Shown: positions 24,501 through 60,478 of the stretch, piece after piece
Layout: each line of letters starts with the position of its first letter
Numbering within the stretch: position 1 is the first letter of the stretch
DNA from: Ktedonobacteraceae bacterium
Lineage (GTDB): Bacteria; Chloroflexota; Ktedonobacteria; Ktedonobacterales; Ktedonobacteraceae
Length of the DNA stretch: 64,000 nt
Assembly: GCA_013695595.1 (NCBI GenBank)
Contig: JACDAE010000804.1
Coordinates: 2,764-66,763 of the forward strand
Direction of reading: 5' to 3'
Notes under the pieces: model-generated
What the model was told of the DNA's origin: nothing
What the model saw: the letters and a program-made list of their open reading frames with translations, nothing else
Database searches by the model: none
Made by a program: the position numbers and the translations under genes

Positions 24501-24548
24501 CTTGCCACATTTAATGGTTTTTTGAAAATAGGTCGCTTGGTCATTCAT
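21513..24548 (-). CDS. STAND-type AAA ATPase with N-terminal zinc ribbon and C-terminal TPR array
   Basis: CGKARCKKC...GPYWF; Walker A GEAGMGKTRLAEE; Walker B LIVLDDLQWAD; about 550 aa of TPR-like repeats. Confidence 0.8.
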   Translation of the reverse strand: MNDQATYFQKTIKCGKARCKKCREEGEGHGPYWFVRRKEGNHTVEKYIGVNLPPLLQQVGRSPQSHLIGREQELKRLQACLQGIEEKQRRTAKSKHPPLLPAEIQHCFLLEGEAGMGKTRLAEEGARFVAGRKWTVVWGSAYPEERIIPYRPWIEVLRKVVTQQMWQQQEHKTLPQFYRHLRPLLPESLFPEMADESISLPQEPFLIWEAVLELLVALSRATPLLIVLDDLQWADASSLDLLAYLARRIQDFPILIIGTCRDTELNVHHPLRKLLTDLQREHSIEILLLTPLSNEQIHLLVSSVLRTPEMIQAVSIGAAGNPFFAEELAHTIKYWKRIGEMVLPPLPRTVSALLDHRLQGISSACFALLGKAAVLGRTFELDVLRSLAGDQSEDQVISLLEEALQMGLLTEEGIQQPITYHFWHPLLASHLYEQLSAARKASFHRRIADVFCQKYQNREEGADSIMYHLMRGGGEPRRIASYAEIAGNRAYTLSSYPDAARAYGIALDHLRQCPLSLEEQKHLITLLELLGECTRYQGKYEDARRWYEEALQTSSTWSTSASPQELQRSALLWCEIGFTWYSGGKLVRALECYQQSEQVLSSAGIIDGPALAYLRYRQSYVYWRSGNYAEALPRALEALHLFESEHQGKWTEIDISSPRTLIGQTLAGDPINLGRIHLLLGLITNGSGQYVATIEHWNTALAIFEQSESKRDIAVISCNLGDAYLRKADHESAQVALHRALTIGEQIGETPLIGAVCGNLGILALRLGKLPEAEQWLRKGITYAQEAKDQVYLSILHGHLAETLQQQGNYEDAGSHIHCCLSISRGMHIQPCLGLGLVALGKLHYRQALALEAAEELSVDRREQLSLHFLMRAKRALQSAIKLDEIEAETRTEAHIFLGQVVFLLGENDIAKLLATQALEEALRFELTWLIGLAYRVLGTIHSGPSEYFEQALHLFNKAGMRLEYASTLRSYAKYLSEHQESVQRGRMYLEEAAQIVKDEKADMDKQAGGV

Positions 24549-30312: not shown

Positions 30313-31560
30313 TTAAATAGCGGCGATGACGCGCTGAGTGACCCATGTAGCCATCGGGGGCGGGACCATGTGCCCACATTGCCGTATCAGCTCCTCTTTC
30401 GTGTCCGCCGCAATAATGTAGTTGGCAGGCAACCCACTTCCCCCGCGAACTTCGCTCTCGTTGAGCATCCGAAAGCTGCACTCCTGGATGTCTAGGGAGC
30501 CAGAGCGCGGGGGAAAGACGATCCCGCAACGGGCAACTGTGGAGAACGTACAAAACGGTTCAAAAATGCTGTATGGTTTGCCATTGCTATAATACGTAAC
30601 CCAGAATGGCAGCGGTCCCTCCAGGGAAGGAATGCCCTGAGCGCTGGCCGGGGGAACCTGCTGATGCTTTACAAAGCGGTCGATACCGAGCTCGATGCGC
30701 TGCAGCGTCGTGTCCTCCAGTACAGGGAGTCCGTAATCTTGACGATCTCGTATCCTGATGCCGCGATCCGCATAGTCGATGACCGCTGCGGCTGCCCTAT
30801 AAGGAGGAAAGACGCGCCTGGAACAGTACGGGCAATTATAAGTATATTGCCCTTTACCGGTGTAGTCGTACTTGCCCCACTTCTTTGTAGGGTTCTTAAA
30901 GCACTGCACTGCTCGTACCTCGCGTTCGCAATACGCGCAGATCACCAGTGGCCGAAACTCCAGGTCTGGCCGTTTTGCTCCTTTACGCCAGAAGATTCCG
31001 ATCCATCTATCGCGCCGCTGGCATACGTCGAAGAACATCGCGCACAGATAGAGTTCCTGACACTCATAGCCCAGCGCCTGCATCTTCTTTTTCCAATCCT
31101 TGTAGTCTCCCCATTTGCTGGCAACTTCCGTGACATTCTCAAAGATCATGCTATGGTAGGGTGTTCCCTTTTCGACTTTTGCCGCCGCCGCACGATAGAC
31201 CTGCCACATCGACATGCGTGATTGTTCGACGTGTGGCTTATCATCATGGTCCGTCCACATCGCCAACTGGCCCTGACCGTTCAACTTCTCTCCTGCGGCA
31301 GGGGTCTGGAACCGACATTCAGGACTCCCTGTGCCGAGCAGAGAGTCACATTCTTGTACAAAATCCACGTCCTCCATACGCATACACAGATGCTTCGCAC
31401 GCGGGAAGTTCTGGCGATGGGTCTCAATAGAGCGGGGATCGTGATTGACGGCCAGGTTCAATACTGCTCCCCCGTGTTCAACGCCAGAGCCAAACGCGCC
31501 AGCACCACAGAAGAAGTCAGTTGCCGTCAAATCCTGATCCCAATAGAAATGCGTAGCCAT
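30313..31560 (-). CDS. DNA (cytosine-5)-methyltransferase
   Basis: Motif I DFFCGAGAFG, IV GSPECRF (PC variant), VI FENV, VIII QRRDR, X GHMVPPP. Confidence 0.8.
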   Translation of the reverse strand: MATHFYWDQDLTATDFFCGAGAFGSGVEHGGAVLNLAVNHDPRSIETHRQNFPRAKHLCMRMEDVDFVQECDSLLGTGSPECRFQTPAAGEKLNGQGQLAMWTDHDDKPHVEQSRMSMWQVYRAAAAKVEKGTPYHSMIFENVTEVASKWGDYKDWKKKMQALGYECQELYLCAMFFDVCQRRDRWIGIFWRKGAKRPDLEFRPLVICAYCEREVRAVQCFKNPTKKWGKYDYTGKGQYTYNCPYCSRRVFPPYRAAAAVIDYADRGIRIRDRQDYGLPVLEDTTLQRIELGIDRFVKHQQVPPASAQGIPSLEGPLPFWVTYYSNGKPYSIFEPFCTFSTVARCGIVFPPRSGSLDIQECSFRMLNESEVRGGSGLPANYIIAADTKEELIRQCGHMVPPPMATWVTQRVIAAI

Positions 31561-34675: not shown

Positions 34676-35914
34676 TCAGCCTCCCTCTTGTTCTTTCAGG
34701 TTTTGCATTTCCTCAGAAGGAGATAATTCCATCGCTTGTCTTTCTTCCTTTGGTTGGAGATATGCTTCTGGAACACTATGAACGGGTTCTAAACGCCGCT
34801 GCAAGAGATGAATAGGAGCAAGAGTGCTATTCTTCAAGGTGGTATCGAGCTGACGCATAGCTTCCAAGGAAGGAGCAAGCGTCTGAGCATAGGCAGTCAT
34901 TGTCTTATTAAAGATCTTAATGACGTCATCCAGCTGGGAGCGTAAGGCATTCCATTGCTGATGGCCTTCAGCAAGATGGCGATAGATCTGTTGTTCATGC
35001 TTCAAAAGCTGTTCTACATTCTGAGCGCGACTTTCCACACTCCATCCATAGGCAATCACTTTGAGCAAGGTAAGCAAACTAATTGGGGATGCAAGCATAA
35101 CCTTCAGATTCATGCCGTATTCCATAAGAGCTGGATCGTGCTCAAGGGCAGCGCGAAACATGGCTTCCGAAGGGAGGAAAAGGACGACAAATTCGGGAGC
35201 ATTGCCCAGCTGCCAATACTCCTTCTGAGCCAGCTCTTTTATGTGTCGACGAACTGCACTTGTATAGATTTCCATATGCTTTGATATTCCGGTTTCTTCG
35301 ATCCTCTTTTGTGCAGTCAAATAGGTTTCCAAGGGGGCTTTCGCATCAATCGCAACACATCGATCTGGAGGAATGTAAATTATCACGTCTGGTCGCTGTT
35401 GGCGATCTAAAGAAGGGAAAGACTTCTGTGCTTCAAAGTCACATTCCTTCTCCATGCCTGCAAGTTTGAGGCAATTGAGCAATTGCAGCTCTCCCCACGT
35501 TCCCTGTTGTTTTGTCGTTCTAAGGGCTTTGCTGAGCGTGTTTACTTCCTGCTGGGTATGAAGCAATTCCGCTGTCACCTGGCCCTGAAGTGCTTTTGTC
35601 TGTTGCTCAAATGTATTACTAAAAAGTTTTTGCTGTTCGTGTAAGAGCCCCTGTTGTTGCTGAATCTGACCTTGCTGCTGTTGGATTTGGCCAAGAGCCT
35701 TTGTTAATTGCATGCGAAAGCTTCGTTGCCGCATTGCTGAGAGAACCAAAAGAATGAGCAACAATACACCTCCCACAGCAACAGCGCTTAACACAATAGG
35801 TCCCTCGTTCCTCATTGTCCATTCAAGCATTTCCAACTTCCTTCTACTCTTGGGTAGAACAACATCAAGTAGTGAAGATATGGTGAAATGAGTGTAAACT
35901 CCATCGTTTTTCAT
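34676..35914 (-). CDS. rmuC: DNA recombination protein RmuC
   Basis: N-terminal TM, Q-rich coiled coil, RPDVIIYIPPDRCVAIDAKAPLETY nuclease motif. Confidence 0.8.
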   Translation of the reverse strand: MKNDGVYTHFTISSLLDVVLPKSRRKLEMLEWTMRNEGPIVLSAVAVGGVLLLILLVLSAMRQRSFRMQLTKALGQIQQQQGQIQQQQGLLHEQQKLFSNTFEQQTKALQGQVTAELLHTQQEVNTLSKALRTTKQQGTWGELQLLNCLKLAGMEKECDFEAQKSFPSLDRQQRPDVIIYIPPDRCVAIDAKAPLETYLTAQKRIEETGISKHMEIYTSAVRRHIKELAQKEYWQLGNAPEFVVLFLPSEAMFRAALEHDPALMEYGMNLKVMLASPISLLTLLKVIAYGWSVESRAQNVEQLLKHEQQIYRHLAEGHQQWNALRSQLDDVIKIFNKTMTAYAQTLAPSLEAMRQLDTTLKNSTLAPIHLLQRRLEPVHSVPEAYLQPKEERQAMELSPSEEMQNLKEQEGG

Positions 35915-36267: not shown

Positions 36268-39200
36268 TCATTCAACAAATTGTGAGATGTATTTTCCCAA
36301 ATTGGAATCAGTTGCGAGCCGCCGATGAGGGATAGCTGGTTTCGTAATTCCTAATTCTGTTAAATCATCTAAATGATGCAGTCCGACTGACCCAACCATC
36401 ATCTGTTCAAAAGCTACTTTTTCCTCATCTAAAGCTTTGATAACAGAGAGATAGCCTCGGAGATAGACACTATCTTTGGCAGAGTATATTCCGGGCTGAT
36501 TAAGATGAGTAACACCTCGCCATGTGCGAAGACAACGATTTTGTGCGTTTCTTCGTGCACTTTCTTGGATCTCGGCAGCAGTCAGCGTCTTTTCTACAAG
36601 CAAGCTTCGTATTGTATTTACCTTTTCTAAGAACAAAAGTAGCTTCCTAAAAGTGAATGGATCACTGATTAGTCCTGATGCCAAGCCTGTAGCAAGAGTA
36701 CCGATCCAAGATTTATTTGGCTTACAACGGGATCCCTGCTGATCCACCTCTTGGGTATAATAGATTGCTAACCCTTCCTCAATTTCTAAAAATCCCTGGA
36801 GGCCAGCAGAAAGTATTGCTAAGGGAGATTTTTCTCCAGCGTTGGAGCGAAACGCATGTGTTTCAATCTCATGAGCCAGCAATTCTCTAATTTTTGCAAG
36901 ACTCACCCATTGTCCCTCTCCTGGCAATATAAGTTGTTGCAGATTTAGGCTAACACGAGCGTGGTCAGCAGTTAGATCGTGTTTGACCGTCCAGGGAAAT
37001 TGATATGTCCGAAAAACATCTGTAAAAAAGCGACCCACCGTCTCTGGTGAAAAAAGCGTCAGTGTCTCATCAACAGAAGTGTATTGGATCTCTGTTCTTT
37101 GCTCAGTTGGTACATCGGAGAGTTCTAAGCTCATTGGTTTAATTAGCCAGTGGCTCGTCTCCTGTATGATATGTTTGCTTAATTGCTCGGTCTCGTTATG
37201 TTGTAGTCCACGCCTTAATGTATCTGCAAGTTGACGAATTGCCAGTTCCATTTCCGCCATGCTTGGGCTAGAATTTATGCGCTGGTTATGGAACCAGAAA
37301 GCATCATCATCTTGACGTCCTGTAGCAGCAATCATATTTAACTCATCTAACCGCTCGTCAATTGTACCTAAGTAGAGCCGACGGACAAGCACATTAGGTT
37401 CGTGCTGCTCTATTTCTACTCTTAATAGTGAAAAATCTGTCAGCTTCGATTGTACCTCTGATTGTGGGATAAGCGGATAATGAAAAGAAGGCTCTCGTTG
37501 TTCCTCATAAGACTTCCCCAGCTCTCTTTTTCGAGATTGAGCAATAATTGCTGCTATACGCTTTGAGATATCTTCATCCTCTGGCTGTTGCACAATACTA
37601 TTCCACTCTAACAGTTCTTCTTCAGAAAATGGTCCCGCTGGAGTAAGCCATTTGATATCGCTATATGATGCAAGTTGATGATATCTTGGATACCAACGCC
37701 AGTCCAACTGGCGGCGAGGGTTGGCTTTATGCCAGCTCTCGATAGTTCGCAAACCTTCCGTTGCTGTTGCGGCTGATACCTCTCGTGAAGTTCCTCCAAC
37801 CAAGGGAATACCCTCAAGAAAAAGTGCTTTTGCTTCATCAAGTTTCCCTAACAATAGAAATAGTTTGCCTCTGTTGATAAGCAGCATCCCTTTTTCTTTA
37901 AGAGTGGAGTTTTGACCAGCATCTAACAATTGCTGTATTATCTGCAACGCACGGTCATTATACATTAGCGCTTCGTGAAAGTTTCCAACCTGGCCAAGCA
38001 GTTGACCATAATCATCATAAGAAACGGCGAGAGAACTTGGAATGACAAATCCTGCCTCTTTTAGCTTTAAGCATTCCTTCATTGAGTGACTGGCTGCTTC
38101 CAGGTCTCCTGTAGTTCGCTGATAATACGATAAGTCGTTAAGCTGTCTTGCTCTCTTAAAGCGCATATGGCTATGTTCTATAGGAGAGGCAAAACGCTCT
38201 TGTTGTTGTAGTAATTCAACACATTGTTGATGTACAGTAATAGCTTCTTGTCTGAGACGAAATGCATCCTTTCGCAATATTCCTGCTGATGCCTCATCTA
38301 TTTCTTTTTTAGCCAAAGCATCCTGGTGATCTCCCCACCGTCCTAACACATACGCCTGCCGATCAAGCAGATCTGTAAAAGTAGTTGGTTGAGTGCTTTG
38401 AAGATCCTTATACTCTTTGCATATCTCGTCAATTAATGACCAGGCTTCAGCATGCTGTTTAGCAGTTATCAGGTAGCGTAGTTTATGATGAACAAGATGG
38501 AATGTAGTACTTGGCTTAAGTCTGATGCTTTCTGTACTCATTACCTCATAGAGATACAGATATGCCTTTTTACGCTCAGCACTGCCCAGATCCTTGTCAA
38601 TTTCGCGAGCCAGCAAGTGGTGTTGTAAAAGCAGTCCTCCTACTTCTTCTTCTATAGAGCGGTGCCAGTTGGAGGAGCGCATGATTTCATCGGCGAGACG
38701 TGCAAGACGAGGGGCATGCCCAAACGCAAAGCTGAGCCACCCATACTCAATGAGGAGTTCAGCAGCCTCAAGGAAATGCCGCTGCTTGAGATGAGTAGCT
38801 GCCAGTTCGCTGATCAACATAGCCTGTTCCTGCTCGCTGCTGAACGTTCCCTGCTCCAGCCAGACTGTATAGGTGTGGATAAGCTGTTGTTCGGTCTCAG
38901 CTAGGCGCTTGTCTGCCTGAAGCTGGTGGATGGTCGCTTCACGCGCCAACGGCTGCAAAATCGCTCGTTCGTCCTGCTCCATGGTAGTACGATCAATCAG
39001 TGATGCCTGAAGCAACTCGGCGAACGCGTACTCTGCTTGTTGATTGATTTCCAGAAGGAGTGGGAATGGTAGTGCCATTGGGGTGGCCGCTAACGCTTCC
39101 AGAATCTGCAACGCATCATGTGAGAGTCGTCTGCCTATGACCTGCTGAAAAAGCTGGCGGGCCTCGACATCTGCGGTTCCAAAGATGTGCGTATCCGTCA

Positions 39201-40416
39201 GCAGCTGCTCGATGAGTTGTTGATGTTCGCTCTTTTTTTCTTGCGATGTTTTGTTGCGCTGCCATCCGAAAGAGAAACGGGGGCGCTGAAGGTTGGCCGC
39301 ACGTAGCTCGATCACAAGCGCATTCCCACCACAACGATCCGTAGCCTCTTGCAAGAGCTTTTCAGGAACATCGGTAAAACCTAACCGTTGCCAGATGCGG
39401 ATCCCAGCTTGTGGATCAAGTCGCGGCAATATTGCATCGTCCCCATCAACGACAAAGCTTCGCTCTCGTCCAGTCCATAGCGGCCATTGGCGTGTTGCCA
39501 GATAGATGAGCGCCTGGTGGTCTAATCGGAGGTACTCAGCGAAAAATTGTTGCCATTCGCGAGGAAGCTGGCCACGTTCATCCATGATGACCTGTGCGTC
39601 ATCAATAAGGAGGATAATACGCTGGTCCGTTTCTGCCAAGTGCTTCATTACCTGTTCAATGCGTTTGGCTAGTGGTGGTGTTTTACTTGCTTCCGGCTCC
39701 GAGACTTGTAATTCTGCGAGGATAGCTGCTAGAAACATATCTAGGTGATCAGTCGGTGTAATATCAGTAGCAGTCGAAAAGTTATAAAGAACAGGCCAAC
39801 ATTCTTCCCGATCCAGAAGGTTTTGCAATAAGAGCTTGATACCAGACGTCTTGCCAACGCCCATCATCCCCTGGATCACGACAAGCTTCTTTAGAGACGC
39901 TCCATCAAGATACGAAAGTGCCTTTGCCAGCCAAAGTTCTCGGCCAACAATATGGCTTGTGTCAAGAGAAACCTTTTTTCGAGCATTTGTCCCTACACTC
40001 GCTACTTCATCGTCCCCTATCTGACGACCTGATTTTGCATCCCGATCGATCTGTGCAAGTTGGATCTCCAACAATCGCCACTCACTCTCTGGTCGCAGTT
40101 TGGGTCTTTTGCGCTGAAGGCTCTCAATCTTTAGCCGAGCGAGACGAATAAAGGCATTCCTTTCCTGCGCTGAAATTTTGAAATCATTTCCTATGAGGGC
40201 AGAGTAAAGCGGTAAGAGTTCTTCAAATTGAAGGGCGCGTTTGCCTTTCTCAAGTTTCCGATACATATCTGGTGTTAAAGGAGCAATCCGGTGCTCTTCA
40301 AAGAAGTAAGAGAATGTCCCTACCAGCTCACTTTGTGGAATCTGCTCTCGCTCGCGCAAGTACCTTAAAAAAGCTCCAAGTGTATTGATATGCACTATCG
40401 GCGTTACTTTTTGCAT
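36268..40416 (-). CDS. HTH - NB-ARC STAND NTPase - TPR - DUF1704/MATCAP-like metallopeptidase fusion (1382 aa)
   Basis: HIVGRE...VVIQGMMGVGKTS, ILLIDDAQ, RCGGNALVIE (NB-ARC); C-terminal HEIETH (HExxxH), EIEEGLAIYY (QEGLA-like), SAKDSVYLRGY. Confidence 0.8.
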   Translation of the reverse strand: MQKVTPIVHINTLGAFLRYLREREQIPQSELVGTFSYFFEEHRIAPLTPDMYRKLEKGKRALQFEELLPLYSALIGNDFKISAQERNAFIRLARLKIESLQRKRPKLRPESEWRLLEIQLAQIDRDAKSGRQIGDDEVASVGTNARKKVSLDTSHIVGRELWLAKALSYLDGASLKKLVVIQGMMGVGKTSGIKLLLQNLLDREECWPVLYNFSTATDITPTDHLDMFLAAILAELQVSEPEASKTPPLAKRIEQVMKHLAETDQRIILLIDDAQVIMDERGQLPREWQQFFAEYLRLDHQALIYLATRQWPLWTGRERSFVVDGDDAILPRLDPQAGIRIWQRLGFTDVPEKLLQEATDRCGGNALVIELRAANLQRPRFSFGWQRNKTSQEKKSEHQQLIEQLLTDTHIFGTADVEARQLFQQVIGRRLSHDALQILEALAATPMALPFPLLLEINQQAEYAFAELLQASLIDRTTMEQDERAILQPLAREATIHQLQADKRLAETEQQLIHTYTVWLEQGTFSSEQEQAMLISELAATHLKQRHFLEAAELLIEYGWLSFAFGHAPRLARLADEIMRSSNWHRSIEEEVGGLLLQHHLLAREIDKDLGSAERKKAYLYLYEVMSTESIRLKPSTTFHLVHHKLRYLITAKQHAEAWSLIDEICKEYKDLQSTQPTTFTDLLDRQAYVLGRWGDHQDALAKKEIDEASAGILRKDAFRLRQEAITVHQQCVELLQQQERFASPIEHSHMRFKRARQLNDLSYYQRTTGDLEAASHSMKECLKLKEAGFVIPSSLAVSYDDYGQLLGQVGNFHEALMYNDRALQIIQQLLDAGQNSTLKEKGMLLINRGKLFLLLGKLDEAKALFLEGIPLVGGTSREVSAATATEGLRTIESWHKANPRRQLDWRWYPRYHQLASYSDIKWLTPAGPFSEEELLEWNSIVQQPEDEDISKRIAAIIAQSRKRELGKSYEEQREPSFHYPLIPQSEVQSKLTDFSLLRVEIEQHEPNVLVRRLYLGTIDERLDELNMIAATGRQDDDAFWFHNQRINSSPSMAEMELAIRQLADTLRRGLQHNETEQLSKHIIQETSHWLIKPMSLELSDVPTEQRTEIQYTSVDETLTLFSPETVGRFFTDVFRTYQFPWTVKHDLTADHARVSLNLQQLILPGEGQWVSLAKIRELLAHEIETHAFRSNAGEKSPLAILSAGLQGFLEIEEGLAIYYTQEVDQQGSRCKPNKSWIGTLATGLASGLISDPFTFRKLLLFLEKVNTIRSLLVEKTLTAAEIQESARRNAQNRCLRTWRGVTHLNQPGIYSAKDSVYLRGYLSVIKALDEEKVAFEQMMVGSVGLHHLDDLTELGITKPAIPHRRLATDSNLGKYISQFVE

Positions 40417-51391: not shown

Positions 51392-52027
51392 ATGGATCTC
51401 TTATCTATCAGGAAGGAAAACTTTATGCAAGCAGTTATAACACAAATGTCAAATCAGCTCTGCCTTTGTGGGCATATTCTCCGTAGCGAGACCGAGCGCC
51501 TGCGAGGTCGCTGCATTGAATGTGGGCTACAAGATGACATGAATGAGCACACAGTGAGCACTCTGCTCACCTATGCGAAAGAGCAGGATCATTGCCTACA
51601 ACCTATCGTGCATATGGCACGCAAAGCAATCGCCGCCGAGCGGAAAGCAATGAGTTCCTTTTATAAAGAGCGCAGCATGTGCGAGGCGGATTTCCTCGAC
51701 GCCTATGAGTTGTGTGAGGCACTCACCTGCATCGCAAACGCCCTTTCGCAATGGGCCTACGTTGCAGCGCGACTCTGGTATGCACTGGAACTGGCTGGAG
51801 AGGATCACCAGCCTTACCTGCGTACACTCCATCTCTGGAGCACACAACAGTTCTCGCGCCTGCTCTCCATTCACCTCGCCATGCAGGCCAGCATCCAGGT
51901 ATTTTGCCGGGAGCGCAGCATCTTGCTTACCTTCAGCGTTGTAGACCAGGCGCTCGACCTTTCCGCACAAACCCACGCCCGTACAAAAACGGACGTTTCT
52001 AAAAGAATAGAAGCACTGGCCTACTAA
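51392..52027 (+). CDS. hypothetical protein with zinc-ribbon-like CLCGH...CIECG
   Basis: 211-aa ORF; last codons overlap S-site 13. Confidence 0.45.
   Translation: MDLLSIRKENFMQAVITQMSNQLCLCGHILRSETERLRGRCIECGLQDDMNEHTVSTLLTYAKEQDHCLQPIVHMARKAIAAERKAMSSFYKERSMCEADFLDAYELCEALTCIANALSQWAYVAARLWYALELAGEDHQPYLRTLHLWSTQQFSRLLSIHLAMQASIQVFCRERSILLTFSVVDQALDLSAQTHARTKTDVSKRIEALAY
51981..52003. promoter_or_regulatory. S-site 13
   Basis: GTACAAAAACGGACGTTTCTAAA. Confidence 0.55.
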
Positions 52028-52134
52028 CACGCGGACAGTGCTAGAACAAACGACACTTCTTATAAGGAGGTGCCTGGAGTTGACATCGGTCAAATAACGA
52101 TCACCACTATCCTTTATAGCACGGCAATACAATA

Positions 52135-52172
52135 TCAAGATAAACCTATACGTATAGGTATAGGTTTATCTT
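52135..52172. repeat. R-repeat 11
   Basis: CAAGATAAACCTATA-8-TATAGGTTTATCTTG, 15-bp perfect arms. Confidence 0.7.
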
Positions 52173-52214
52173 GAGCGTCAAAGCTAGCGATCGAGAAAGT
52201 AGAAAGGCACAGCA

Positions 52215-52538
52215 ATGCAGACCAACGAAACAAGCACCCAGGAGCAAGCCGCCATCGCCGAACTCACTACAAAGTGGGGCTATCGCGACATTTCCGCGCT
52301 CATCGTAGCATGGAAGAAACACATGGCAGAGCAGTATCGCGAAGACGCCGATACCACCACGTACCTTTGCGTCCTCCAGACTCCAGAGGGCGGACCAGTC
52401 TACTGCCGAACGGCAAAACGGCTTTTCAGGGAGCTTGAAACGGCCCAAGCTCGCAATGAGCCACATGAGCAGTCTCCCGCCCCGGACCCTGCACAAAATA
52501 TGTGGATGGTCGTTGGCAACTTCGACATTGAGGATTAA
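52215..52538 (+). CDS. hypothetical protein
   Basis: 107-aa ORF. Confidence 0.45.
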   Translation: MQTNETSTQEQAAIAELTTKWGYRDISALIVAWKKHMAEQYREDADTTTYLCVLQTPEGGPVYCRTAKRLFRELETAQARNEPHEQSPAPDPAQNMWMVVGNFDIED

Positions 52539-52564
52539 GGTAGCACGGACCAAAGAGGCAACGT

Positions 52565-53797
52565 ATGAAATCTCTCAGCTTGTGGCAGGATCAGGAAAGC
52601 CGGAAAACCTTAGAGGAAGCCATCGAAGAAACGATCAGCGCCTTTCACAAAACCAATGCCTGGCAGTATGCCATCTGGGATATCGGATACAGCGGAGGCA
52701 AGGATAGTACGGCCCTCGTGACCTTGCTGGCTCATCTTCTAGCCTCGGGGCGACTTCCACGACCAAAGCGGATCGTGGTGCAATACGCTGATACGGGCAT
52801 GGAAGTGCCCCCACTTCAACAATCAGCACTGCACATTCTCCACCAGCTCAAACAGCAGGGCTTTGAAACGCAGGTGGTCCGTCCTGCCCTGGATGATCGG
52901 TTCTTTGTCTATATGTTCGGGCGGGGCGTCCCGCCTCCCAACAATGGTCGCATGCGTTGGTGTACCAGGATTTTGAAAGCAAAACCAATGTCAGTGGCAC
53001 TTGAGGCAGCCAGCGGTGGACTCAAGAGTCTTGTGATCACCGGAGTCCGTGACGGCGAAAGCATTGCACGCGACGAGCGAATCGTGGCTGCATGCTCGAA
53101 GGACAGCGGGGAATGCGGTCAGGGCTACCTGCACGTCAAGTACGAAAACAGTAGCGTAGCCGACGCGCTTGCGCCTATCCGTGGCTGGCGTGTCTGCCAT
53201 GTCTATGACTGGCTGAGCCTTTATGCTCCAGGCTACGGGTTTGATACCTCGACGATTGCTGAAGTGTACGGCTACAACAGTCAAAATGGACAGGATGAGC
53301 CTCTGAACGCCCGCACTGGCTGTATGGAATGCCGTCTCGTCCACGAGGATCACATGATGGAGCGCGTACTGGCACTGCCCAAATACCAGTACCTTGCACC
53401 GATCCGTTGCTTACGCATGCTCTACGAGGAGTTAACACAGGATCACATGCGTCTACAAAAAGACGGAACGCAGCGCCTCAAGGATGGTGGGATGCCTGCC
53501 AACCTCTATCGAAAAGGCCCACTGACGATGGAAGCACGGCGCTATGGCCTAGCTCAGGTGAAAGCGATCCAGGCCGAAGTCAATACGCTGGCCAGGGCAC
53601 AAGACATATCGTCGGTCAGCCTCATCAGCCCAGAGGAGGAAAACAGAATTGAGGAACTGATTGCGGCCAATACTTGGCCGCAGGGATGGACGGGGACGGA
53701 ACCGCTCGCTTCCACCTTCCAGGAGCCGGAAATACAACCAGAGGCAATCCAGCTCGACTGGGAGACCACGTTGGCAGGACAGGATATATGGGAATAA
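52565..53797 (+). CDS. DndC-like PP-loop ATP pyrophosphatase (PAPS-reductase superfamily)
   Basis: PP-loop GYSGGKDSTAL, RMRWCTRILKAKP, Cys cluster ACSKDSGECGQG...TGCMECRLV, resembles recalled DndC/SspD. Confidence 0.7.
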   Translation: MKSLSLWQDQESRKTLEEAIEETISAFHKTNAWQYAIWDIGYSGGKDSTALVTLLAHLLASGRLPRPKRIVVQYADTGMEVPPLQQSALHILHQLKQQGFETQVVRPALDDRFFVYMFGRGVPPPNNGRMRWCTRILKAKPMSVALEAASGGLKSLVITGVRDGESIARDERIVAACSKDSGECGQGYLHVKYENSSVADALAPIRGWRVCHVYDWLSLYAPGYGFDTSTIAEVYGYNSQNGQDEPLNARTGCMECRLVHEDHMMERVLALPKYQYLAPIRCLRMLYEELTQDHMRLQKDGTQRLKDGGMPANLYRKGPLTMEARRYGLAQVKAIQAEVNTLARAQDISSVSLISPEEENRIEELIAANTWPQGWTGTEPLASTFQEPEIQPEAIQLDWETTLAGQDIWE

Positions 53798-53855
53798 GAC
53801 CTTCTCACTTGGGTCCTTTTACGTGGTACTTGCTCAAATATTGAAAGGATTTTGC

Positions 53856-54107
53856 ATGATGAAGCAAAGCGACAGGAAACACTTTGAGCAGGTAGACGAG
53901 GTTTTAGCCTATGCTCGCTCGACAATCAGGCAATCGCTCAAGTCGTCGAAATGGGTGCAAAGAGGCGGATCGGCTGTCTACCTCTCCACTGGTATTTACC
54001 TGGATGAGACTGGATGGTTTGTTGCGAAGAAATTGCATTTTCGCCATAGCGACCAAACGATCCTCTACGGCACCGTTTGTCATGATGGAACATTTCTTGA
54101 GGAATAA
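53856..54107 (+). CDS. hypothetical small protein
   Basis: ATG 53856 within ORF 53661..54107. Confidence 0.4.
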   Translation: MMKQSDRKHFEQVDEVLAYARSTIRQSLKSSKWVQRGGSAVYLSTGIYLDETGWFVAKKLHFRHSDQTILYGTVCHDGTFLEE

Positions 54108-54157
54108 TGACAATTTTCAACCCTTATGTATAGTTCTCCTGATAGAAAAAGGAAGTA

Positions 54158-55642
54158 ATGATCATGTTTACTATCGATACCAAAACCGGTTTACTATGTT
54201 TCTGCATTCATGGCCATTTTTATCAACCTCCGCGCTACGATCCGTTTACGGGCCTGATCGCCAGTGAGCTGGGGGCCACACCCTTTGCTAATTATAACGA
54301 AAAAATTACTTGGGAATGCTATCAGCCGAATGCGGAAGCGGACAATTTCGCCAGTATTAGTTTTAATCTGGGACCAACACTTGCAAGCTGGCTTGAGCGT
54401 GCACATCCTGACGTGTACCAGCACATTCTTGCCTCTGAGCAGCAGCACATGCAGCGCTACGGGGTAAGTAATGCTTTGGCACAAGGATATAATCACACCA
54501 TTTTGCCCCTCGCTTCCACACGCGATAAAAGGACCCAGATCCTCTGGGGGCTACAAGACTATGAGCATCGCTACGGCCACAAGGCACATGGCATGTGGTT
54601 AGCAGAAACAGCCACCGATCTTGAGAGCCTTGATCTCATGGCCCAGGCAGGGATTACCTACACGATCCTGGCCCCCTGGCAGGCTGCCTGCGAGATTGAT
54701 CGCAGTGAGCCCTATTATGTCCATCTGCACAACGGTCGCCGCATGATAGTGTTCTTTTATAATGGCCCGACATCGGGCGGCGTTTCATTTGAGGATCACC
54801 TTACCAATGATGCCAATATGTTTGCCGCATCTGAACTACAAAAGCATCGTCAGCAGGACAAAAGTGAGCACGGCGAGCCACAGATGCTGCTGATTGCTAC
54901 GGATGGTGAGCTGTACGGCCATCACAAGCCCTATCGAGACCGTTTTCTGTCCCATCTGTTGCGTTATGGCGCTCCAAGCTATGGCTTTGAAGTCTGTACG
55001 CTAGAGCGCTACCTCCTGGCACATCCGCCTACCAGAGAAATTCAACTCCATGAACCAAGCTCCTGGAGCTGCATCCATGGGGTAGAGCGATGGCGCGTGG
55101 GGTGCTCCTGCGATGGTACACAGCGCGATGAGCAAAGGCAATGGAAGGCTCCCCTGCGTATGGCACTCAACCATCTTGCCAGTGCTTGTGATCGGCTTTT
55201 TGAGCAGTATGCTAGTGAGACGCTGCATGATCCCTGGAGCGCACGCGATGACTATCTGGCACTCCATCAGGGCTGGGAAACACCCGAACACTTCTGGAAA
55301 CGGCACAGCAAACACGGGCAGGCTCCTCGCGACATTGCCTCAATCTTACAAACAAGCCAGCTTCTTGAAGCGCAGTATTATATGCAGCAAAGCTTCACGA
55401 GCTGCGGTTTTTTCTTTGAAGATGTCGCGCGGATAGAACCACGCAATGATATTGCCTTTGCTCGTAAGGCAATCAGCTTGCTGTGGCAGGCAACCGATAT
55501 CGATCTCCAGCATGAATTTGTATGCGAGCTAGCACACGTCCAGAGCTGGCAAGCACACCTCTCCGGCGCAGACCTCTACCGAGAACTACCAGCCGTTCCG
55601 AGCACCTGGCTCCCATTATTGGAAATGAAGGACCACAAATGA
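54158..55642 (+). CDS. glycoside hydrolase family 57 / DUF3536-like protein
   Basis: HGHFYQPPR, GMWLAETA, LIATDGELYGHH (GH57 regions I, III, IV), C-terminal SCGFFFEDV. Confidence 0.7.
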   Translation: MIMFTIDTKTGLLCFCIHGHFYQPPRYDPFTGLIASELGATPFANYNEKITWECYQPNAEADNFASISFNLGPTLASWLERAHPDVYQHILASEQQHMQRYGVSNALAQGYNHTILPLASTRDKRTQILWGLQDYEHRYGHKAHGMWLAETATDLESLDLMAQAGITYTILAPWQAACEIDRSEPYYVHLHNGRRMIVFFYNGPTSGGVSFEDHLTNDANMFAASELQKHRQQDKSEHGEPQMLLIATDGELYGHHKPYRDRFLSHLLRYGAPSYGFEVCTLERYLLAHPPTREIQLHEPSSWSCIHGVERWRVGCSCDGTQRDEQRQWKAPLRMALNHLASACDRLFEQYASETLHDPWSARDDYLALHQGWETPEHFWKRHSKHGQAPRDIASILQTSQLLEAQYYMQQSFTSCGFFFEDVARIEPRNDIAFARKAISLLWQATDIDLQHEFVCELAHVQSWQAHLSGADLYRELPAVPSTWLPLLEMKDHK

Positions 55643-55661
55643 GCACAGAGATGGAAATTGA

Positions 55662-55683
55662 TAGAGAAACGGACGTTTCTGGA
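55662..55683. promoter_or_regulatory. S-site 14
   Basis: TAGAGAAACGGACGTTTCTGGA, 18 bp before ATG 55702. Confidence 0.6.
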
Positions 55684-55701
55684 AACGTGGGAGGTTATCA
55701 G

Positions 55702-56538
55702 ATGACCCATCTTACTCCCGCCAATAACACCTGGGTCGCCCGTCATGAGCAGGCCCGTTACCTCGTTTCGCTCTCGGGAGGTCTAGGCAGTGCCATTGCC
55801 GCAGAGTGGGCGATAGAGCAGTATGGAAGAGCACAAGTTGGCTTGTGGTTTGCTGATGTACAGGATGAGGATGAAGATACCTATCGGTTTTTACATGATC
55901 TGATGGCCCGCTGGGGGGGCATCCTGTACTGGTACACCGATGGGCGGCGGCCAGCAGATGTGTGGGATGAACGCAAAATCATTCCCAACAGCCTGATTGC
56001 TCCATGTACCTATATTCTCAAAATCGAGCCCTACCGCAGGTTTATTCAGGCGATGCCCATGCTGCCAATCGTGCTGATTGGTTTCAAACAGCATGAAGCC
56101 AGGAGACAACACAACTGCATCGCCTCCTATAAAGAAGCCATACCCGAGGCCGTCGTTGACTATCCGCTCCTGTGGCGACCAGAGGAAACGAGAGCGCTTA
56201 CGACCATCTGCCAGCACGAGTTGGGCATTGAACCACCGCGCGTCTATGCCCTAGGCTATGACTACAACAACTGTCTGGGGGCTGGCGGCTGTTGTCGTAG
56301 TGGCATTACCACCTGGGTCCGAACCGCCTATTACTTTCCTGAGCGCTTTGCCGCACGGGAGTCCTGGGAACAACAGGCCCGCGCTCACGGAGGACCACGA
56401 GCAAACCGTAGCTTTTGCGCACGCACGCGCAATGGCAAGAAGGAAGCGCTCACCTTAGAACAAATTCGCCTGAACTACCTTCCCAATGCACCCAAACTCT
56501 TAAAGCTGAATACACAAAAAGGAGTGGAACTCACATGA
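55702..56538 (+). CDS. PAPS-reductase-family PP-loop protein (second copy, divergent)
   Basis: VSLSGGLGSA PP-loop variant, APCTYILKIEP (C-T-x-x-L-K), Cys cluster NNCLGAGGCCRSG. Confidence 0.6.
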   Translation: MTHLTPANNTWVARHEQARYLVSLSGGLGSAIAAEWAIEQYGRAQVGLWFADVQDEDEDTYRFLHDLMARWGGILYWYTDGRRPADVWDERKIIPNSLIAPCTYILKIEPYRRFIQAMPMLPIVLIGFKQHEARRQHNCIASYKEAIPEAVVDYPLLWRPEETRALTTICQHELGIEPPRVYALGYDYNNCLGAGGCCRSGITTWVRTAYYFPERFAARESWEQQARAHGGPRANRSFCARTRNGKKEALTLEQIRLNYLPNAPKLLKLNTQKGVELT

Positions 56539-57644
56539 TTACCAATGATACGCCACATCCTGCAACGTGGCAAACCAGCAAGGGGCGACCCGTGGACTGG
56601 TATGTGAATGAGCAGGTACAGCAAGGGCACTGGCAGGAGCAGGTGATTACACCTGAACTGACCGGACTGAGCCGCTCGATCACCGTCTTTCGCACACCCA
56701 AATCCTCGGACCTAATTGCCTATGACTGGCACGGCGACAAAAAAACGTTCTGTCCCCCCATGTGGTGGGACTTGGCGATTGGCTCAGGAGCCTGCAATTT
56801 AGGCTGTCGCGGCTGCTTCTTAGTGCTTACCCACCGCATCCGGCGCGATCCCTGGCGGCATCTCTTATATTCCAATGTCGATGACTTCACGCGTGCTGCT
56901 GAGAAATGGCTGGCCGACCCAGCTCGTCGCCGACAACATACCCTTGGTATCGGCATTGATCGTAGCGATAGTCTGCTCTATGAAGGCGTAACTGGACATG
57001 TGAGAAACCTCGCGCCCTTATTCGCCTCGCCTCGCTATAACCGCGTCGGGAACAAACTCATTTTGCTGACCAAGAGCGCCAATACGCGCTATCTTGAGGA
57101 GATTGCGCCTTCGCACCGCGCACAGGTTGTCGTCTCATTCTCTTTGAACCCACAGAGCATCGCTGATTGCTGGGAAGGACTCTGGCCAGACGGTGAACGC
57201 ATTCCTCCGACTATCGCGCAACGCCTGGATGCCGCTCGACATGCCCAGGACCTGGGATTTGAGATCAGGATACGGGTAGACCCGATCCTGACTCCCCCGG
57301 GCTGGCAGGACGCCTACCAGGAGTTTTTCGCAGAGACCGCCGCACGCGGCATTCACTTTGCTTACTATACGCTGGGAACCTACCGGGAAAAAAATGTCCA
57401 ACTCCAGGCATGGATTGAGCACTGGGGCATGCAGCCGATGACCTGGCAACCTGATGCAGGCGATATGACTCAGGACGGGACACATCGGCACCTGTCCGAA
57501 GGAAAGCGCGTAGAAATTTACCGAGAAATCCGCGACAGCATTCGTGTTGCCTCTCCAGGCACAAAAATCTCTCTTTGCAAAGAGACGCATGCGGTACGAA
57601 AGCTCGTAGAATTGTGCAACGCTGACTGTAACTGCTTGCTCTAA
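56535..57644 (+). CDS. radical SAM enzyme, spore-photoproduct-lyase/DNA-photolyase-like (COG1533-type)
   Basis: CNLGCRGC = CX3CX2C; LLTKSANT...VSFSLNPQ...RIRVDPIL layout; ATGA overlap with upstream gene. Confidence 0.65.
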   Translation: MITNDTPHPATWQTSKGRPVDWYVNEQVQQGHWQEQVITPELTGLSRSITVFRTPKSSDLIAYDWHGDKKTFCPPMWWDLAIGSGACNLGCRGCFLVLTHRIRRDPWRHLLYSNVDDFTRAAEKWLADPARRRQHTLGIGIDRSDSLLYEGVTGHVRNLAPLFASPRYNRVGNKLILLTKSANTRYLEEIAPSHRAQVVVSFSLNPQSIADCWEGLWPDGERIPPTIAQRLDAARHAQDLGFEIRIRVDPILTPPGWQDAYQEFFAETAARGIHFAYYTLGTYREKNVQLQAWIEHWGMQPMTWQPDAGDMTQDGTHRHLSEGKRVEIYREIRDSIRVASPGTKISLCKETHAVRKLVELCNADCNCLL

Positions 57645-57700
57645 GCAGCGACAGACCTTGCAGCCCCATCTAGGGGGGCTGCAACCCAAGGGAGATAATA

Positions 57701-58213
57701 ATGGCAACTCTTCGCTTTATACAGGCACCAGAGCAGGCAGAAAAAGAAGAAGACAGGCAGCGCACTCAGGAGCAGAAAATATTTCTGGCGCTGCATGAAA
57801 CTAAAACCTATGCAGAAATTGCAGCCGATTTTAACCTGAGCACGAAGGCGCTCTCCAAACTGGTCACACAAAAAATTTATCCCATGGCCGGCATAAAAAC
57901 ACGTAGAGATCTTTTCCAGGAGTCTCTTCTACGCATTCCACGCTGGCACCTGGAAGCTCTCTGTAAAGAATATTGCTTCACGAAAAAAGAGCGCCTGACG
58001 TTCTTCCTCATGATCCGCAAGCCACAATTCAAGAGAGGAGAGATCGCCAGCGAATTACATAGCAGCGATGCAACGATACGTAATCACATGCATAGCATCT
58101 ATAAAAAAATGGCGATCGCCGAGACTGGTACGAAACACTGGACCATGGTTATCTTTCAGGTCTACAAGACATGGCAAACAGCACAGGAGAGGAGCACCCA
58201 TGAACGCCCCTGA
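57701..58213 (+). CDS. LuxR/GerE-type HTH regulator
   Basis: FTKKERLTFFLMIRKPQFKRGEIASELHSSDATIRNHMHSIYKKMAI. Confidence 0.6.
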   Translation: MATLRFIQAPEQAEKEEDRQRTQEQKIFLALHETKTYAEIAADFNLSTKALSKLVTQKIYPMAGIKTRRDLFQESLLRIPRWHLEALCKEYCFTKKERLTFFLMIRKPQFKRGEIASELHSSDATIRNHMHSIYKKMAIAETGTKHWTMVIFQVYKTWQTAQERSTHERP

Positions 58214-58571
58214 GCGAAATAGCACAGACTGGTCGGGCTGTGCCTCTCTCATGCTGATTGCAATGAGCCACCTGCTAGAGCAAGGAAGGCTCTCAGGACT
58301 CTTACGTGATCAACCAGGAAAGACAGGCCCAGTGGAACCATCCATCAGGCCCTCAAACTTGAACGAATGTTACAAAGGACTTGCTTTTCTAAGAACATTC
58401 TGTTATTTTGATAAGTGTATTCAGGAGTCTCACGAGGAAGCAGGCAGATACCTGCCTCCTCTGTCCAACAGCGAGCAGGAAGCCACGCGCTATCACCGTA
58501 TGAAAAAAGAGGCGGTCGCTGATCACTTCTATAGGAACAGTCGCAGATGCACCCGAAAGGAGAACATATGA
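58200..58571 (+). CDS. hypothetical protein
   Basis: ATG 58200 overlaps LuxR-like stop region. Confidence 0.4.
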   Translation: MNAPERNSTDWSGCASLMLIAMSHLLEQGRLSGLLRDQPGKTGPVEPSIRPSNLNECYKGLAFLRTFCYFDKCIQESHEEAGRYLPPLSNSEQEATRYHRMKKEAVADHFYRNSRRCTRKENI

Positions 58572-60478
58572 AGCTCTACAAACCTGTTCGCCACAAGGCA
58601 GCATCTGGACGCGGCTACGAAGGTGGAGACGCTCCACACGCGACACCGCTCGCTTCGCCTTACGAACCGGGGTATCTGTCAATCAAACAGTTCCCCGACA
58701 AGCGATTCTGGATCATAGGCATCTTTGCAACGCTTCGTGGAGCCAGTGAAGAGGTCATCGAGGAATTACGGACCGATGGTTGGGAACCATGGAGCGAACA
58801 GACAAAAGCGGTGTTCAGTTTTCTGGAGACGCATTTTGCGCAAACGCTGATTGTCGAGGAGTATGATTACGGATTTCGCTACTGGGCACGGACTCCTGCC
58901 CTGCTGTTCGCGCAACGCTATCCGGTGCTGCTAACGCATCAGACGGACGAAAAAGAGTACGCGCATCTGGTACCACCAGATATGGTCGTTGGAAGCGCTG
59001 CCCTGATCTTTGAAGGAGACTCCTACTTTCTCTATACGATAGAACAATTAGGTGAGCAAGGGCAAGATCTTTCTGTGCAAATTAAGGCAGGCATGCTGCT
59101 TTTTCCTGATGATGCTGATCCATCCGAACACGATCGCCGCCGCCAGGAAGCGGCGCGTAGAGAGGCGTGGGAACCAACGCAGCAAGCAGCCCAGCATTTG
59201 GCGAAACTGTACTGGGAACTACATCAGCAACGTACCAAGTCCTCTCCTCGTACGCACGGGTTACCTGCGCTCACCTCAGCACACCGCACCAGACTACCAC
59301 TCACCAATTCATTTCGCGGACTCGCACAAAGCTTTGGACCAGCGGTGCAACATTCCATCTGGAATCAACAATTGGAAGGCACGCTTGAATTGCTGACCCC
59401 CAATGGAACACTTTTACGAGTTGTTGGCACCAACACTGCCGAAAATGTTGCGCTCCATCGCTACGTTACCCAGATGCTCGGACCAGAGGGCCTCAAGCAC
59501 CTGATTATTCTCCTGGACGCCTACTATCTCCAAACAAAAGGAACAGATCGCAAAGCGGACGCGCGGGTCAGCCTCCGGCAACTGCTGATTCGCCTCGGCG
59601 CTGGCAGCAAGGCAGATGATCGCGAAGAACAACGCAAATTCATGCACTCGATTCTCTACCTAGCCAGCACGTATATTACCTCTGATGAGCGGCAACCACC
59701 TGAAACAAGACCACAACCCCTGGCCAGGCAGCGGCGACGCCGAAAAACGGATCGCAAAGACTATTCACCGCTTCTCATCATTGAACGTCTGAAGCCTAGC
59801 CCCGATGGCAGCATTCAGATCCCCGACGAAGTCGAGTACCATCTTGGCGCTGAATTTTTTGAAGCGCTCTTTGGCCCCCAACAACAGTTTTTCTCGCTTC
59901 CAACGGCGCTGCTGCTGCGCTATCATGCCGTGCGCGAGCAACAAGAACTCCTGCTCGCATTTTATTTGAGCAACGCACTTATTACCTCTGGAGGACGCTT
60001 CTCTGCCTCGTTTCTCACCCTGGTCTTGCAAAGTGCACTACAATCGCAGGATGAGGTTGCTCGTGGGCACGATCGTCTGCGTGATGCCCGACGTGTTCTC
60101 TTCGCACTAGAACATCTAGAGCAACAGGATTTAATCCGGCGGGAGAGTCATATAGCAATCGATACGGCCTTGACGATGGAACTGGCGACAAAAAAAGAGA
60201 TTCAGGAGATGCTGGCTCCGGCCACCTTGCAGCGCATTCAACTGGAAGTCACCTATCAACAGCAACTTCCACCAGAGAAAATACGGGCCAGCCGACGGAT
60301 CGCTCTGCAGCAGTTGCTCGATGAGCACACTCATCCACCCGTCACCTTCCTCGCGGGTCCGGTATTAGTCGATCAAATCCAGCACCATCAGCAACGCCTT
60401 CACGAACAAAAGAACACGCCCGCTCAACTCCCGCCCTCCACACCACCGAGGAAAAGGAGAAAAAAGGATGTGCTCTAA
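58568..60478 (+). CDS. hypothetical protein, possible replication initiator
   Basis: 636 aa, SD AAGGAGA; position next to iterons and primase; no motif recognised firmly. Confidence 0.5.
   Translation: MKLYKPVRHKAASGRGYEGGDAPHATPLASPYEPGYLSIKQFPDKRFWIIGIFATLRGASEEVIEELRTDGWEPWSEQTKAVFSFLETHFAQTLIVEEYDYGFRYWARTPALLFAQRYPVLLTHQTDEKEYAHLVPPDMVVGSAALIFEGDSYFLYTIEQLGEQGQDLSVQIKAGMLLFPDDADPSEHDRRRQEAARREAWEPTQQAAQHLAKLYWELHQQRTKSSPRTHGLPALTSAHRTRLPLTNSFRGLAQSFGPAVQHSIWNQQLEGTLELLTPNGTLLRVVGTNTAENVALHRYVTQMLGPEGLKHLIILLDAYYLQTKGTDRKADARVSLRQLLIRLGAGSKADDREEQRKFMHSILYLASTYITSDERQPPETRPQPLARQRRRRKTDRKDYSPLLIIERLKPSPDGSIQIPDEVEYHLGAEFFEALFGPQQQFFSLPTALLLRYHAVREQQELLLAFYLSNALITSGGRFSASFLTLVLQSALQSQDEVARGHDRLRDARRVLFALEHLEQQDLIRRESHIAIDTALTMELATKKEIQEMLAPATLQRIQLEVTYQQQLPPEKIRASRRIALQQLLDEHTHPPVTFLAGPVLVDQIQHHQQRLHEQKNTPAQLPPSTPPRKRRKKDVL

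Follow-up and report, generated by a model that had tools for sequence, protein, structure and literature searches.

Do four neighbouring enzyme genes on a Ktedonobacteraceae contig form one pathway of nucleic-acid modification, or do they travel together as the mixed cargo of a mobile element? The question arises from a 64,000-nucleotide stretch of a contig from the metagenome-assembled genome (MAG) of a soil Ktedonobacteraceae bacterium, the whole of which we call the window and whose sequence is also contained in public contigs of 75.7 kb and 83.6 kb. At positions 52565-57644 of the window lie the genes for a DndC-like PP-loop enzyme, for a glycoside hydrolase of family 57 with a DUF3536 domain (GH57), for a second protein resembling phosphoadenylyl sulphate (PAPS) reductases, here named PAPS2, and for a radical S-adenosylmethionine (SAM) enzyme with the fold of spore photoproduct lyase (SPL). 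A preliminary description of the locus had proposed that all four belong to a single modification module. We find that they are not one conserved pathway and that they constitute mosaic accessory cargo in a co-directional gene array. The explanation we favour, with moderate confidence, is that the functional core of this cargo is the coupled PAPS2 and radical-SAM pair, an instance of a recurrent mobile-element pairing with a role in placing or removing a DNA mark and in counter-defence.

The four genes do not form a conserved module

The DndC-like gene (52565..53797, 410 aa), the GH57 gene (54158..55642, 494 aa), PAPS2 (55639..56538, 299 aa) and the radical-SAM gene (56535..57644, 369 aa) all lie on the plus strand. 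Each of the motifs first quoted for their products (SGGKDS, RWCT..LK, SGGLGS, CTYILK and CX3CX2C) is present, and Pfam and PHROG matches, with E-values well beyond what chance would give, agree with the four assignments. The start of PAPS2, originally placed at 55702, belongs at 55639, from where a 299-aa Ktedonobacteraceae MAG protein in the database is 100% identical. The PAPS2 start overlaps the GH57 stop in an ATGA at 55639-55642, and the already described ATGA at 56535-56538, in which the radical-SAM start overlaps the PAPS2 stop by 4 nt, was confirmed; translational coupling thus extends from GH57 through PAPS2 to the radical-SAM gene.

This arrangement is not repeated elsewhere. At the 69 genome loci with PAPS2 homologues, tblastn finds neither a radical-SAM gene of this family nor GH57 nor the DndC-like gene within 10 kb; 80 metagenome loci that carry the radical-SAM gene all lack PAPS2, GH57 and the DndC-like gene; and the other three genes are absent from all 17 DndC-like phage loci. 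The four-gene combination was not found in any other sampled locus (71 PAPS2, 89 radical-SAM and 17 DndC-like loci, the window's own contigs being left out of the 89), and tblastn detected PAPS2, GH57 or the DndC-like gene in none of the 89 radical-SAM loci except that of a sister element, L007. Such a lack of co-occurrence in other genomes, which we observe for the four-gene set, had been named in the preliminary description as an outcome that would speak against its proposal.

The sister element has a radical-SAM protein 86%, a GH57 protein 83% and an AAA ATPase 61% identical to those of the window. Between its GH57 and radical-SAM genes, where the window has PAPS2, stands a sigma-factor gene, and of the DndC-like gene only the final 65 codons survive, at 5000-5194 of L007 (52% identical, with an in-frame stop), a deletion remnant that marks a recent loss of this gene. 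Neighbourhood sampling and L007 together rule out a conserved module of four genes; what endures of the original proposal is the PP-loop and radical-SAM pair, for which six immediate adjacencies are described below.

GH57 is probably a bystander in the four-gene stretch. Its product scores over the cut-offs of both PF03065 (5e-15, 56 bits) and PF12055 (6e-32, 111.6 bits), belongs to a very large family with at least 7994 homologues (E <= 0.001), and is 62-67% identical to chromosomal Ktedonobacteria proteins, for example those of Thermosporothrix hazakensis and Ktedonospora formicarum. The window gene is a copy that has diverged from its counterpart in Ktedonobacteria chromosomes, a captured paralogue rather than the module component it had been taken for. 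The catalytic E150, which in an alignment falls on the nucleophile region of the T. litoralis 4-alpha-glucanotransferase, is invariant, as is the D249-G-E motif. Because of the identity to chromosomal genes, which themselves sit in conserved synteny, and these invariant catalytic residues, GH57 looks like an active glycosidase gene that the element has acquired by copying. Apart from L007, no other PAPS-like or radical-SAM locus sampled contains it. The two chromosomal loci that we read have in common the order RlmA-like methyltransferase, amine oxidase, HNH, then GH57, which could be inherited synteny or a functional link; the HNH endonuclease gene upstream of GH57/DUF3536 in these loci (L180 and L181) encodes about 180 aa.

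PAPS-like and radical-SAM genes are recurrently paired

PAPS2 (55639..56538) belongs to the PHROG 424 type by both its core profile match (phrog_424, 1.4e-27, on profile positions 157-382 of 460) and its fold. It also matches PADLOC SspD (9e-11), and scores 21.4 bits against PF01507, under the cut-off of 22.5. The protein has a degenerate SGGLGS loop and CTYILK, and its family retains S-x-G-x-x-S, a C-x3-LK motif and an NNC...C pair. The best match of its AlphaFold2 model (mean pLDDT 90.8) is a phage 'PAPS reductase' in BFVD (target-normalised TM score 0.82), followed in the PDB by LarE, CysH and MnmA, which are matches at superfamily level; phage QueC proteins give weak structural matches. 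The homologues at the 69 genome loci come from Chloroflexota, Actinomycetota, Bacillota and other phyla, and they adjoin integrases, helicases, primase-like proteins and Dam-type, C5 or other DNA methyltransferases; by this gene content the loci are typical early regions of mobile elements. Two Bacillaceae genomes (L068 and L087) carry two tandem PAPS2-family paralogues that are about 25-31% identical to the PAPS2 of the window.

The radical-SAM enzyme (56535..57644) had been described as being of the SPL or DNA-photolyase type, of which the fold and the CX3CX2C cluster site stand and orthology does not. Its CNLGCRGC cysteines are invariant in the family; it matches PF20903 (SPL) with 29 bits (5e-07), and the best PDB fold match of its model, whose mean pLDDT is only 71.5, is the SPL structure 4fhf (TM score 0.54-0.59). 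Over the SPL structures together Foldseek gives TM scores of 0.5-0.59 (E 2.5e-09) at 16-18% identity, and a PDB profile match to SPL has an E of about 0.02. Thus far it resembles SplB (PDB 4FHC/4FHF), from which it differs in several respects: it scores 35 bits against TIGR04070 (SplB), for which the cut-off is 400, an invariant Asp142 occupies the place that Cys140, the hydrogen donor, has in SPL, and all members have an extra C-terminal cysteine motif (SLCKETH...LCNADCNCL). The score and the replaced cysteine rule out a true spore photoproduct lyase or DNA photolyase orthologue; the enzyme has the SPL fold and is no SPL. Its 592 homologues are 62-86% identical, mostly 62-70%, and those with names come from Ktedonobacteraceae and Anaerolineae, so that the family differs from SplB also in being distributed over Anaerolineae and Ktedonobacteria. 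The protein has no match in GenBank phages, a search of IMG/VR with the family alignment found nothing, and scans of IMG/VR with the single PAPS2, GH57 and radical-SAM proteins gave no matches.

In the classification of RadicalSAM.org, SPL forms megacluster 5-3 and DUF5131 its sister subgroup 5-2 (PMC9477430). Using hidden Markov models built in this analysis, we found six distinct elements in which a PAPS-like gene, from any of three subfamilies, directly adjoins a DUF5131 or SPL-like gene, with both gene orders represented and overlapping codons in four of the six. Besides the window (PAPS2, then the SPL-like gene, 4-nt overlap), these are L131/L132, where the SPL-like gene is followed with a 16-nt overlap by an unrelated 428-aa PAPS_reduct protein (phrog_424 1.3e-20, SGGKDS) and then a Dam methyltransferase; the Ktedonobacteraceae locus L033 (PAPS2, then DUF5131, 11-nt overlap); an Anaerolineales prophage also present in IMG/VR (L038 = L242; PAPS2, then DUF5131, 88-nt gap); and two loci with DUF5131 followed by a DndC-like gene, L021 (4-nt overlap) and L022 (a gap of about 50 nt). 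The pair is probably a real association because there are six such distinct adjacencies, four of them with overlapping codons. Looser neighbourhoods occur as well: in L017, L019 and L027 DUF5131 lies 0.6-2.8 kb upstream of a DndC-like gene, the interval containing a methyltransferase in the latter two loci, and in L034, L092 and L058 a megacluster-5 radical-SAM gene lies 2.6-5.6 kb from PAPS2.

Counted over all loci, a megacluster-5 radical-SAM gene is held by 5 of 17 DndC-like and 5 of 71 PAPS2 loci (10/88 combined), as against none of 80 control loci in IMG/VR anchored on Dam methyltransferases (886 kb). Fisher tests against this control give p values of 1e-4 (DndC-like), 0.02 (PAPS2) and 0.0016 (combined), which are rough estimates of enrichment because most of the control set consists of gut-virus contigs that resemble one another.

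TcmP links the radical-SAM families to candidate defence systems

The radical-SAM families have a second partner. In 52 of 68 loci with enough flank, the gene directly downstream of the SPL-like radical-SAM gene encodes a protein of about 380 aa, identified as TcmP by TIGR04474 ('three-Cys-motif partner protein', 8e-45) and by PADLOC PDC-M30A/M41A; it is usually convergent to the radical-SAM gene, and the 3' ends touch or overlap (median gap 0). DUF5131 in turn matches PADLOC PDC-M30B/M41B, the B component of candidate defence systems, in which it stands beside TcmP, and 11 of 80 DUF5131 viral loci hold TcmP. We treat DUF5131 and the SPL-like family as equivalent since both partner TcmP and since they are sister subgroups in RadicalSAM.org. 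The locus is less isolated than the preliminary description held when it could match it to no described system, its parts matching phrog_12882, phrog_424 and the TcmP/DUF5131 systems PDC-M30/M41. With the latter it has in common that its radical-SAM family pairs with TcmP and that both radical-SAM families adjoin PAPS-like genes; it differs in having, instead of DUF5131, an SPL-fold enzyme of about 370 aa with the canonical CX3CX2C, and in having no TcmP beside it.

TcmP is absent from the whole window, so that the radical-SAM copy there is an orphan. Other TcmP-less copies are scattered over the radical-SAM tree and lie in mobile-element-like operons with MazG, DUF488-N3a, Dam methyltransferase, ASCH, DnaB, DUF5131 or HATPase_c_3. 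The literature on TcmP and DUF5131 that we found consists of annotation mentions and the RadicalSAM.org classification, and a search for DUF488 together with radical SAM returned nothing.

Pairs of SPL-like radical-SAM enzyme and TcmP are found in Chloroflexota metagenomes and MAGs (loci L004, L008-L010 and L100-L179) and look like a variant of PDC-M30/M41 in which the SPL-fold enzyme replaces DUF5131; some of these loci have HEPN/Abi-like or TIR-like neighbours. In L137 and L145 a TcmP-less radical-SAM gene is followed by a HATPase_c_3 protein with weak PADLOC matches to TmtA and to type II restriction endonucleases, and L145 also encodes a B12-binding radical-SAM protein; these two loci may be other conflict systems built around the SPL-like enzyme.

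A stand-alone DndC-like enzyme

The first gene of the stretch (52565..53797) had been likened to DndC, and rightly so, although its product stays under the cut-off for DndC itself. The protein carries SGGKDS, RWCTRILK and a GCMEC pair, and its best named matches are to TIGR03183 DndC (111.5 bits, far under the equivalog cut-off of 290.4) in NCBIfam and, in PADLOC, to DndC (5e-32), followed by BrxP (1.7e-14) and SspD (2e-07); against Pfam PAPS_reduct (PF01507) it scores 24.3 bits, just over the cut-off of 22.5. Aligned with DndC from a Salmonella dndBCDE operon, it has the same S43-S48 PP-loop and the same C133, C253 and C256; it differs in that the C-terminal ~130 residues are missing and in an extra, subfamily-specific C177-x5-C183 pair. 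As had been stated, no Dnd or Ssp partners accompany it. Queries with Salmonella DndB, DndD and DndE (tblastn, phmmer) found nothing in the window, Pfam and PADLOC scans of neighbouring proteins found no Dnd partner, and PADLOC models of Ssp or Brx partners had no match among the ten neighbouring proteins scanned, a set that does not take in every small open reading frame of the window. The scores below cut-off and the failure to find partners in these searches of the window rule out that it encodes a genuine system of the Dnd, Ssp or BREX type 4 kind.

By its full-length profile match (phrog_12882, 8.3e-116, residues 11-386 on profile positions 10-389 of 404) the protein is a member of a stand-alone 'PAPS reductase' family of temperate phages. 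Homologues were found in 16 phage records and on 14 IMG/VR contigs. Identity is 44-49% with the proteins of temperate phages of Pseudomonas, Rhizobium and Microcystis, 35% with one of a Thermus phage, and 43-49% with those of the IMG/VR contigs. Like members such as those of Pseudomonas phage Dobby (AZF87885.1), Rhizobium phage RR1-A (AGN34437.1) and Microcystis phage Mae-JY29 (XAI96242.1), it has about 400 aa, has no Dnd partners and is carried by a temperate or mobile element. A Chloroflexota host is new among the family records examined. A further difference concerns methyltransferases. The phage gene usually has a DNA methyltransferase gene before or after it: of 17 loci, 10 showed one at a distance of up to 5.5 kb, 5 of them at no more than 100 bp, whereas the window gene has no methyltransferase next to it. 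The nearby methyltransferase of the preliminary description does exist, as a C5 DNA methyltransferase gene at 30313-31560, but it lies on the opposite strand, 21 kb from the four-enzyme stretch.

Phage PAPS reductases have been reported to cluster in anti-defence hotspots, and one of them, in a finding cited there from Piel 2022, reportedly promotes evasion of Dnd (PMC13551039). Synthesis of phosphorothioate (PT) requires a PAPS-domain protein together with a partner NTPase; in isolates where the PAPS-reductase gene stood alone, no PT was made (PMC12914056).

A possible role of the pair

On the reading we prefer, the cargo would have three components: a stand-alone DndC-like enzyme from a family of many temperate phages, in which it usually follows just after a DNA methyltransferase; a GH57/DUF3536 gene probably copied from a host-type chromosome; and, as the putative functional core, the coupled pair of PAPS2 and the SPL-fold radical-SAM enzyme. 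The pair would be one variant of a recurrent pairing of PAPS-reductase-like proteins with megacluster-5 radical-SAM enzymes (DUF5131 or SPL-like), and the DndC-like gene a second, separately mobile member of the same PAPS-like theme. From the observed family memberships, couplings and neighbourhood statistics we infer a substrate, a chemistry and a role. Like its thiolating relatives, the PP-loop enzyme would spend ATP on activating a site in DNA or in a nucleotide. The radical step would fall to the radical-SAM enzyme, for which SPL, an enzyme that works on DNA, is the closest relative of solved structure, and jointly the two would write or remove a mark on the DNA of the element. We suppose a DNA mark because both radical-SAM families partner TcmP and because the neighbourhoods are rich in nucleic-acid-modifying genes. 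By analogy with orphan methyltransferases, the TcmP-less copy on the element would most likely serve self-protection or counter-defence, a role suggested by the pairing of chromosomal radical-SAM classes with TcmP in the candidate defence systems PDC-M30/M41. The scatter and gene neighbours of other TcmP-less copies and the reported anti-defence associations of phage PAPS reductases are in keeping with such a role.

A number of points weigh against this reading. Most members of the PAPS-like and of the radical-SAM family occur without the other: a PAPS-like gene is found in just 1-2 of 80 DUF5131 viral loci and in just 2 of 13 distinct TcmP-less radical-SAM contexts, the usual neighbours of the PAPS2 family vary, and in L007 the radical-SAM gene persists without any PAPS-like gene. 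The loci counted for the enrichment are partly kin, with identities of 49-76% among those DndC-like proteins whose genes adjoin DUF5131, and the control set is compositionally narrow. When the profiles of the SPL-like family and of DUF5131 were compared with hhalign, no significant homology emerged. Since the PAPS2 family has neither the Lys nor the Asp of the canonical PP-loop motif, it is uncertain whether PAPS2 is active as an ATP pyrophosphatase. The reading draws on gene associations, sequences and structural models.

We can tentatively extend the proposal, although we regard the extension as rather doubtful: the PAPS-like and megacluster-5 radical-SAM enzymes might make an undescribed DNA modification that serves mobile elements as a counter-measure, and the TcmP-paired chromosomal versions (PDC-M30/M41 and the SPL-like variant of Chloroflexota) might be the matching defence, so that the two sides would meet on an axis of radical-SAM chemistry on DNA.

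Lone 'PAPS reductases' of phages and prophages are among the commonest unexplained accessory genes and have been read as serving sulfur metabolism or anti-defence. The pairing gives two large unexplained families of mobile-element genes one testable joint hypothesis. If it is true, there is a two-protein system to reconstitute and reason to seek a new DNA mark, and TcmP/DUF5131, PDC-M30 and PDC-M41 would gain their first functional handle. As regards the window, an over-reading is put right, in that the four genes are not a single pathway.

Alternative explanations

Might all four enzymes nevertheless form one lineage-specific pathway of DNA or nucleotide hypermodification, with GH57 handling a sugar moiety? 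Their position on one strand within 5 kb, the stop/start overlaps that chain GH57, PAPS2 and the radical-SAM gene, the continued company of GH57 and the radical-SAM gene in L007, and the 2.6 kb from the DndC-like to the radical-SAM gene, which resembles the DUF5131-(methyltransferase)-DndC-like spacing elsewhere, would fit such a pathway. We consider it improbable: codon overlaps are common in compact mobile-element operons, the combination is absent from the 69 + 80 + 17 sampled loci, L007 has lost both PAPS-like genes, and GH57, a close chromosomal paralogue with intact glycosidase residues, is missing from every other PAPS-like/radical-SAM pairing. The opposite view, that even the pair is a chance adjacency of independent 'morons' with unrelated functions, whose gene types merely both abound in one variable region of mobile elements, would account for the many loci with only one of the two families, for the sigma factor that fills the slot between GH57 and the radical-SAM gene in L007, and for neighbourhoods that are highly variable. 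It seems unlikely to us in the face of six distinct immediate cases that involve three PAPS-like and two radical-SAM subfamilies in both orders, four of them overlapping, when the 886-kb methyltransferase-anchored viral control set contains none.

Two further alternatives start from the PAPS-like proteins themselves. The DndC-like enzyme, and possibly PAPS2, could carry out true phosphorothioation with host partners of the DndD/E, SspB/C or BrxC type and thereby mark the DNA of the element as self against PT-dependent restriction by the host. The PADLOC matches of the DndC-like protein to DndC, BrxP and SspD and of PAPS2 to SspD, the PP-loop, RWCT and GCxxC cysteines in common with Salmonella DndC, and the reported part of a phage PAPS reductase in Dnd evasion are consistent with this; the low DndC score, the missing C-terminal region, the lack of DndB/D/E in the window and the dependence of known PT synthesis on a partner NTPase, lone-gene isolates having no PT, make it distinctly unlikely. 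Least probable, and in our estimate very improbable, is that the genes are auxiliary metabolic genes that do not act on nucleic acids, the PAPS reductases boosting sulfate assimilation and GH57 changing glycogen or alpha-glucan, as Pfam's assignment of both proteins to PAPS_reduct, the PHROGs category 'auxiliary metabolic gene' and the intact catalytic residues of GH57 might suggest and as some authors have proposed for prophage PAPS reductases (bioRxiv 10.64898/2026.02.18.706556). Yet the PF01507 matches are borderline, with PAPS2 under the cut-off, sequence inspection finds the C-terminal ECGLH motif of CysH in neither protein, and the closest named families are DndC, SspD and BrxP. About 90 loci adjoin methyltransferases, integrases, primases and radical-SAM enzymes and no cys genes, that is, mobile-element rather than sulfate-assimilation neighbours, and we do not assign either protein to CysH.

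Of other known systems, phage 7-deazaguanine DNA modification by QueC and QueE offers an analogy to the preferred core pair, in that it combines a PP-loop ATPase with a radical-SAM enzyme on a mobile element. The QueC, QueE, QueD, FolE and DpdA families had no Pfam or NCBIfam match among the proteins scanned, which rules out a deazaguanine pathway of the QueC/QueE type.

Other features of the element

The window as a whole resembles a mobile element in its gene content, as the preliminary description had recognised. It encodes Bro-N, bpMoxR, ParA, an FtsK-like protein, an actin-like protein and a cell-wall hydrolase, together with three sigma-type factors, an AAA ATPase, two STAND NTPases and the C5 methyltransferase; no capsid or terminase gene and no tRNA were found in it.

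Around the four enzymes, a small open reading frame of 83 aa (53856..54107, plus strand), which the annotation of the identical public contigs also treats as a gene and which has no Pfam match, lies between the DndC-like gene and GH57. The direct downstream neighbour of the radical-SAM gene (57701..58213, plus strand) encodes a helix-turn-helix protein that resembles LuxR and sigma region 4 (GerE 2.6e-06, Sigma70_r4_2 1e-05) and is treated here as a neighbour of the unit. A scan of 51900-58400 for promoters and terminators found the region no richer than shuffled sequences. Upstream of the DndC-like gene, a near-perfect palindrome of 40 nt with a 17-bp stem (TCAAGATAAACCTATACCTATACGTATAGGTTTATCTTGA, 52135-52174) lies in a 187-nt gap between a 211-aa gene that ends at 52027 and a 107-aa open reading frame at 52215; it might serve as an operator or a terminator, or bind a protein in some other capacity.

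Elsewhere in the window, positions 3948-8129 encode a bpMoxR AAA ATPase (PF20030, 2e-50), a 553-aa protein without a family match and a DUF6744 protein, which may form a ternary conflict system of the MoxR-vWA type on the same element. Large STAND-type NTPases with TPR repeats are encoded at 21513-24548 and 36268-40416, both on the minus strand; the second (1382 aa) also has a MATCAP-like carboxypeptidase domain (7e-14) and adjoins an RmuC gene (34676-35914). The two STAND NTPases and the RmuC region are probably defence or conflict genes borne by the element. Further downstream, a 643-aa protein (58547-60478) has no match in Pfam, PHROG, NCBIfam, PADLOC, phage databases or the PDB. The 1056-aa gene that follows it is cut by the window end and is found at 12546-15716 of L016; its product matches phage hypothetical or 'putative ATPase' proteins, with 37% identity to one of a Methanosarcinales virus and further matches in Caulobacter, Streptomyces and Actinoplanes phages.

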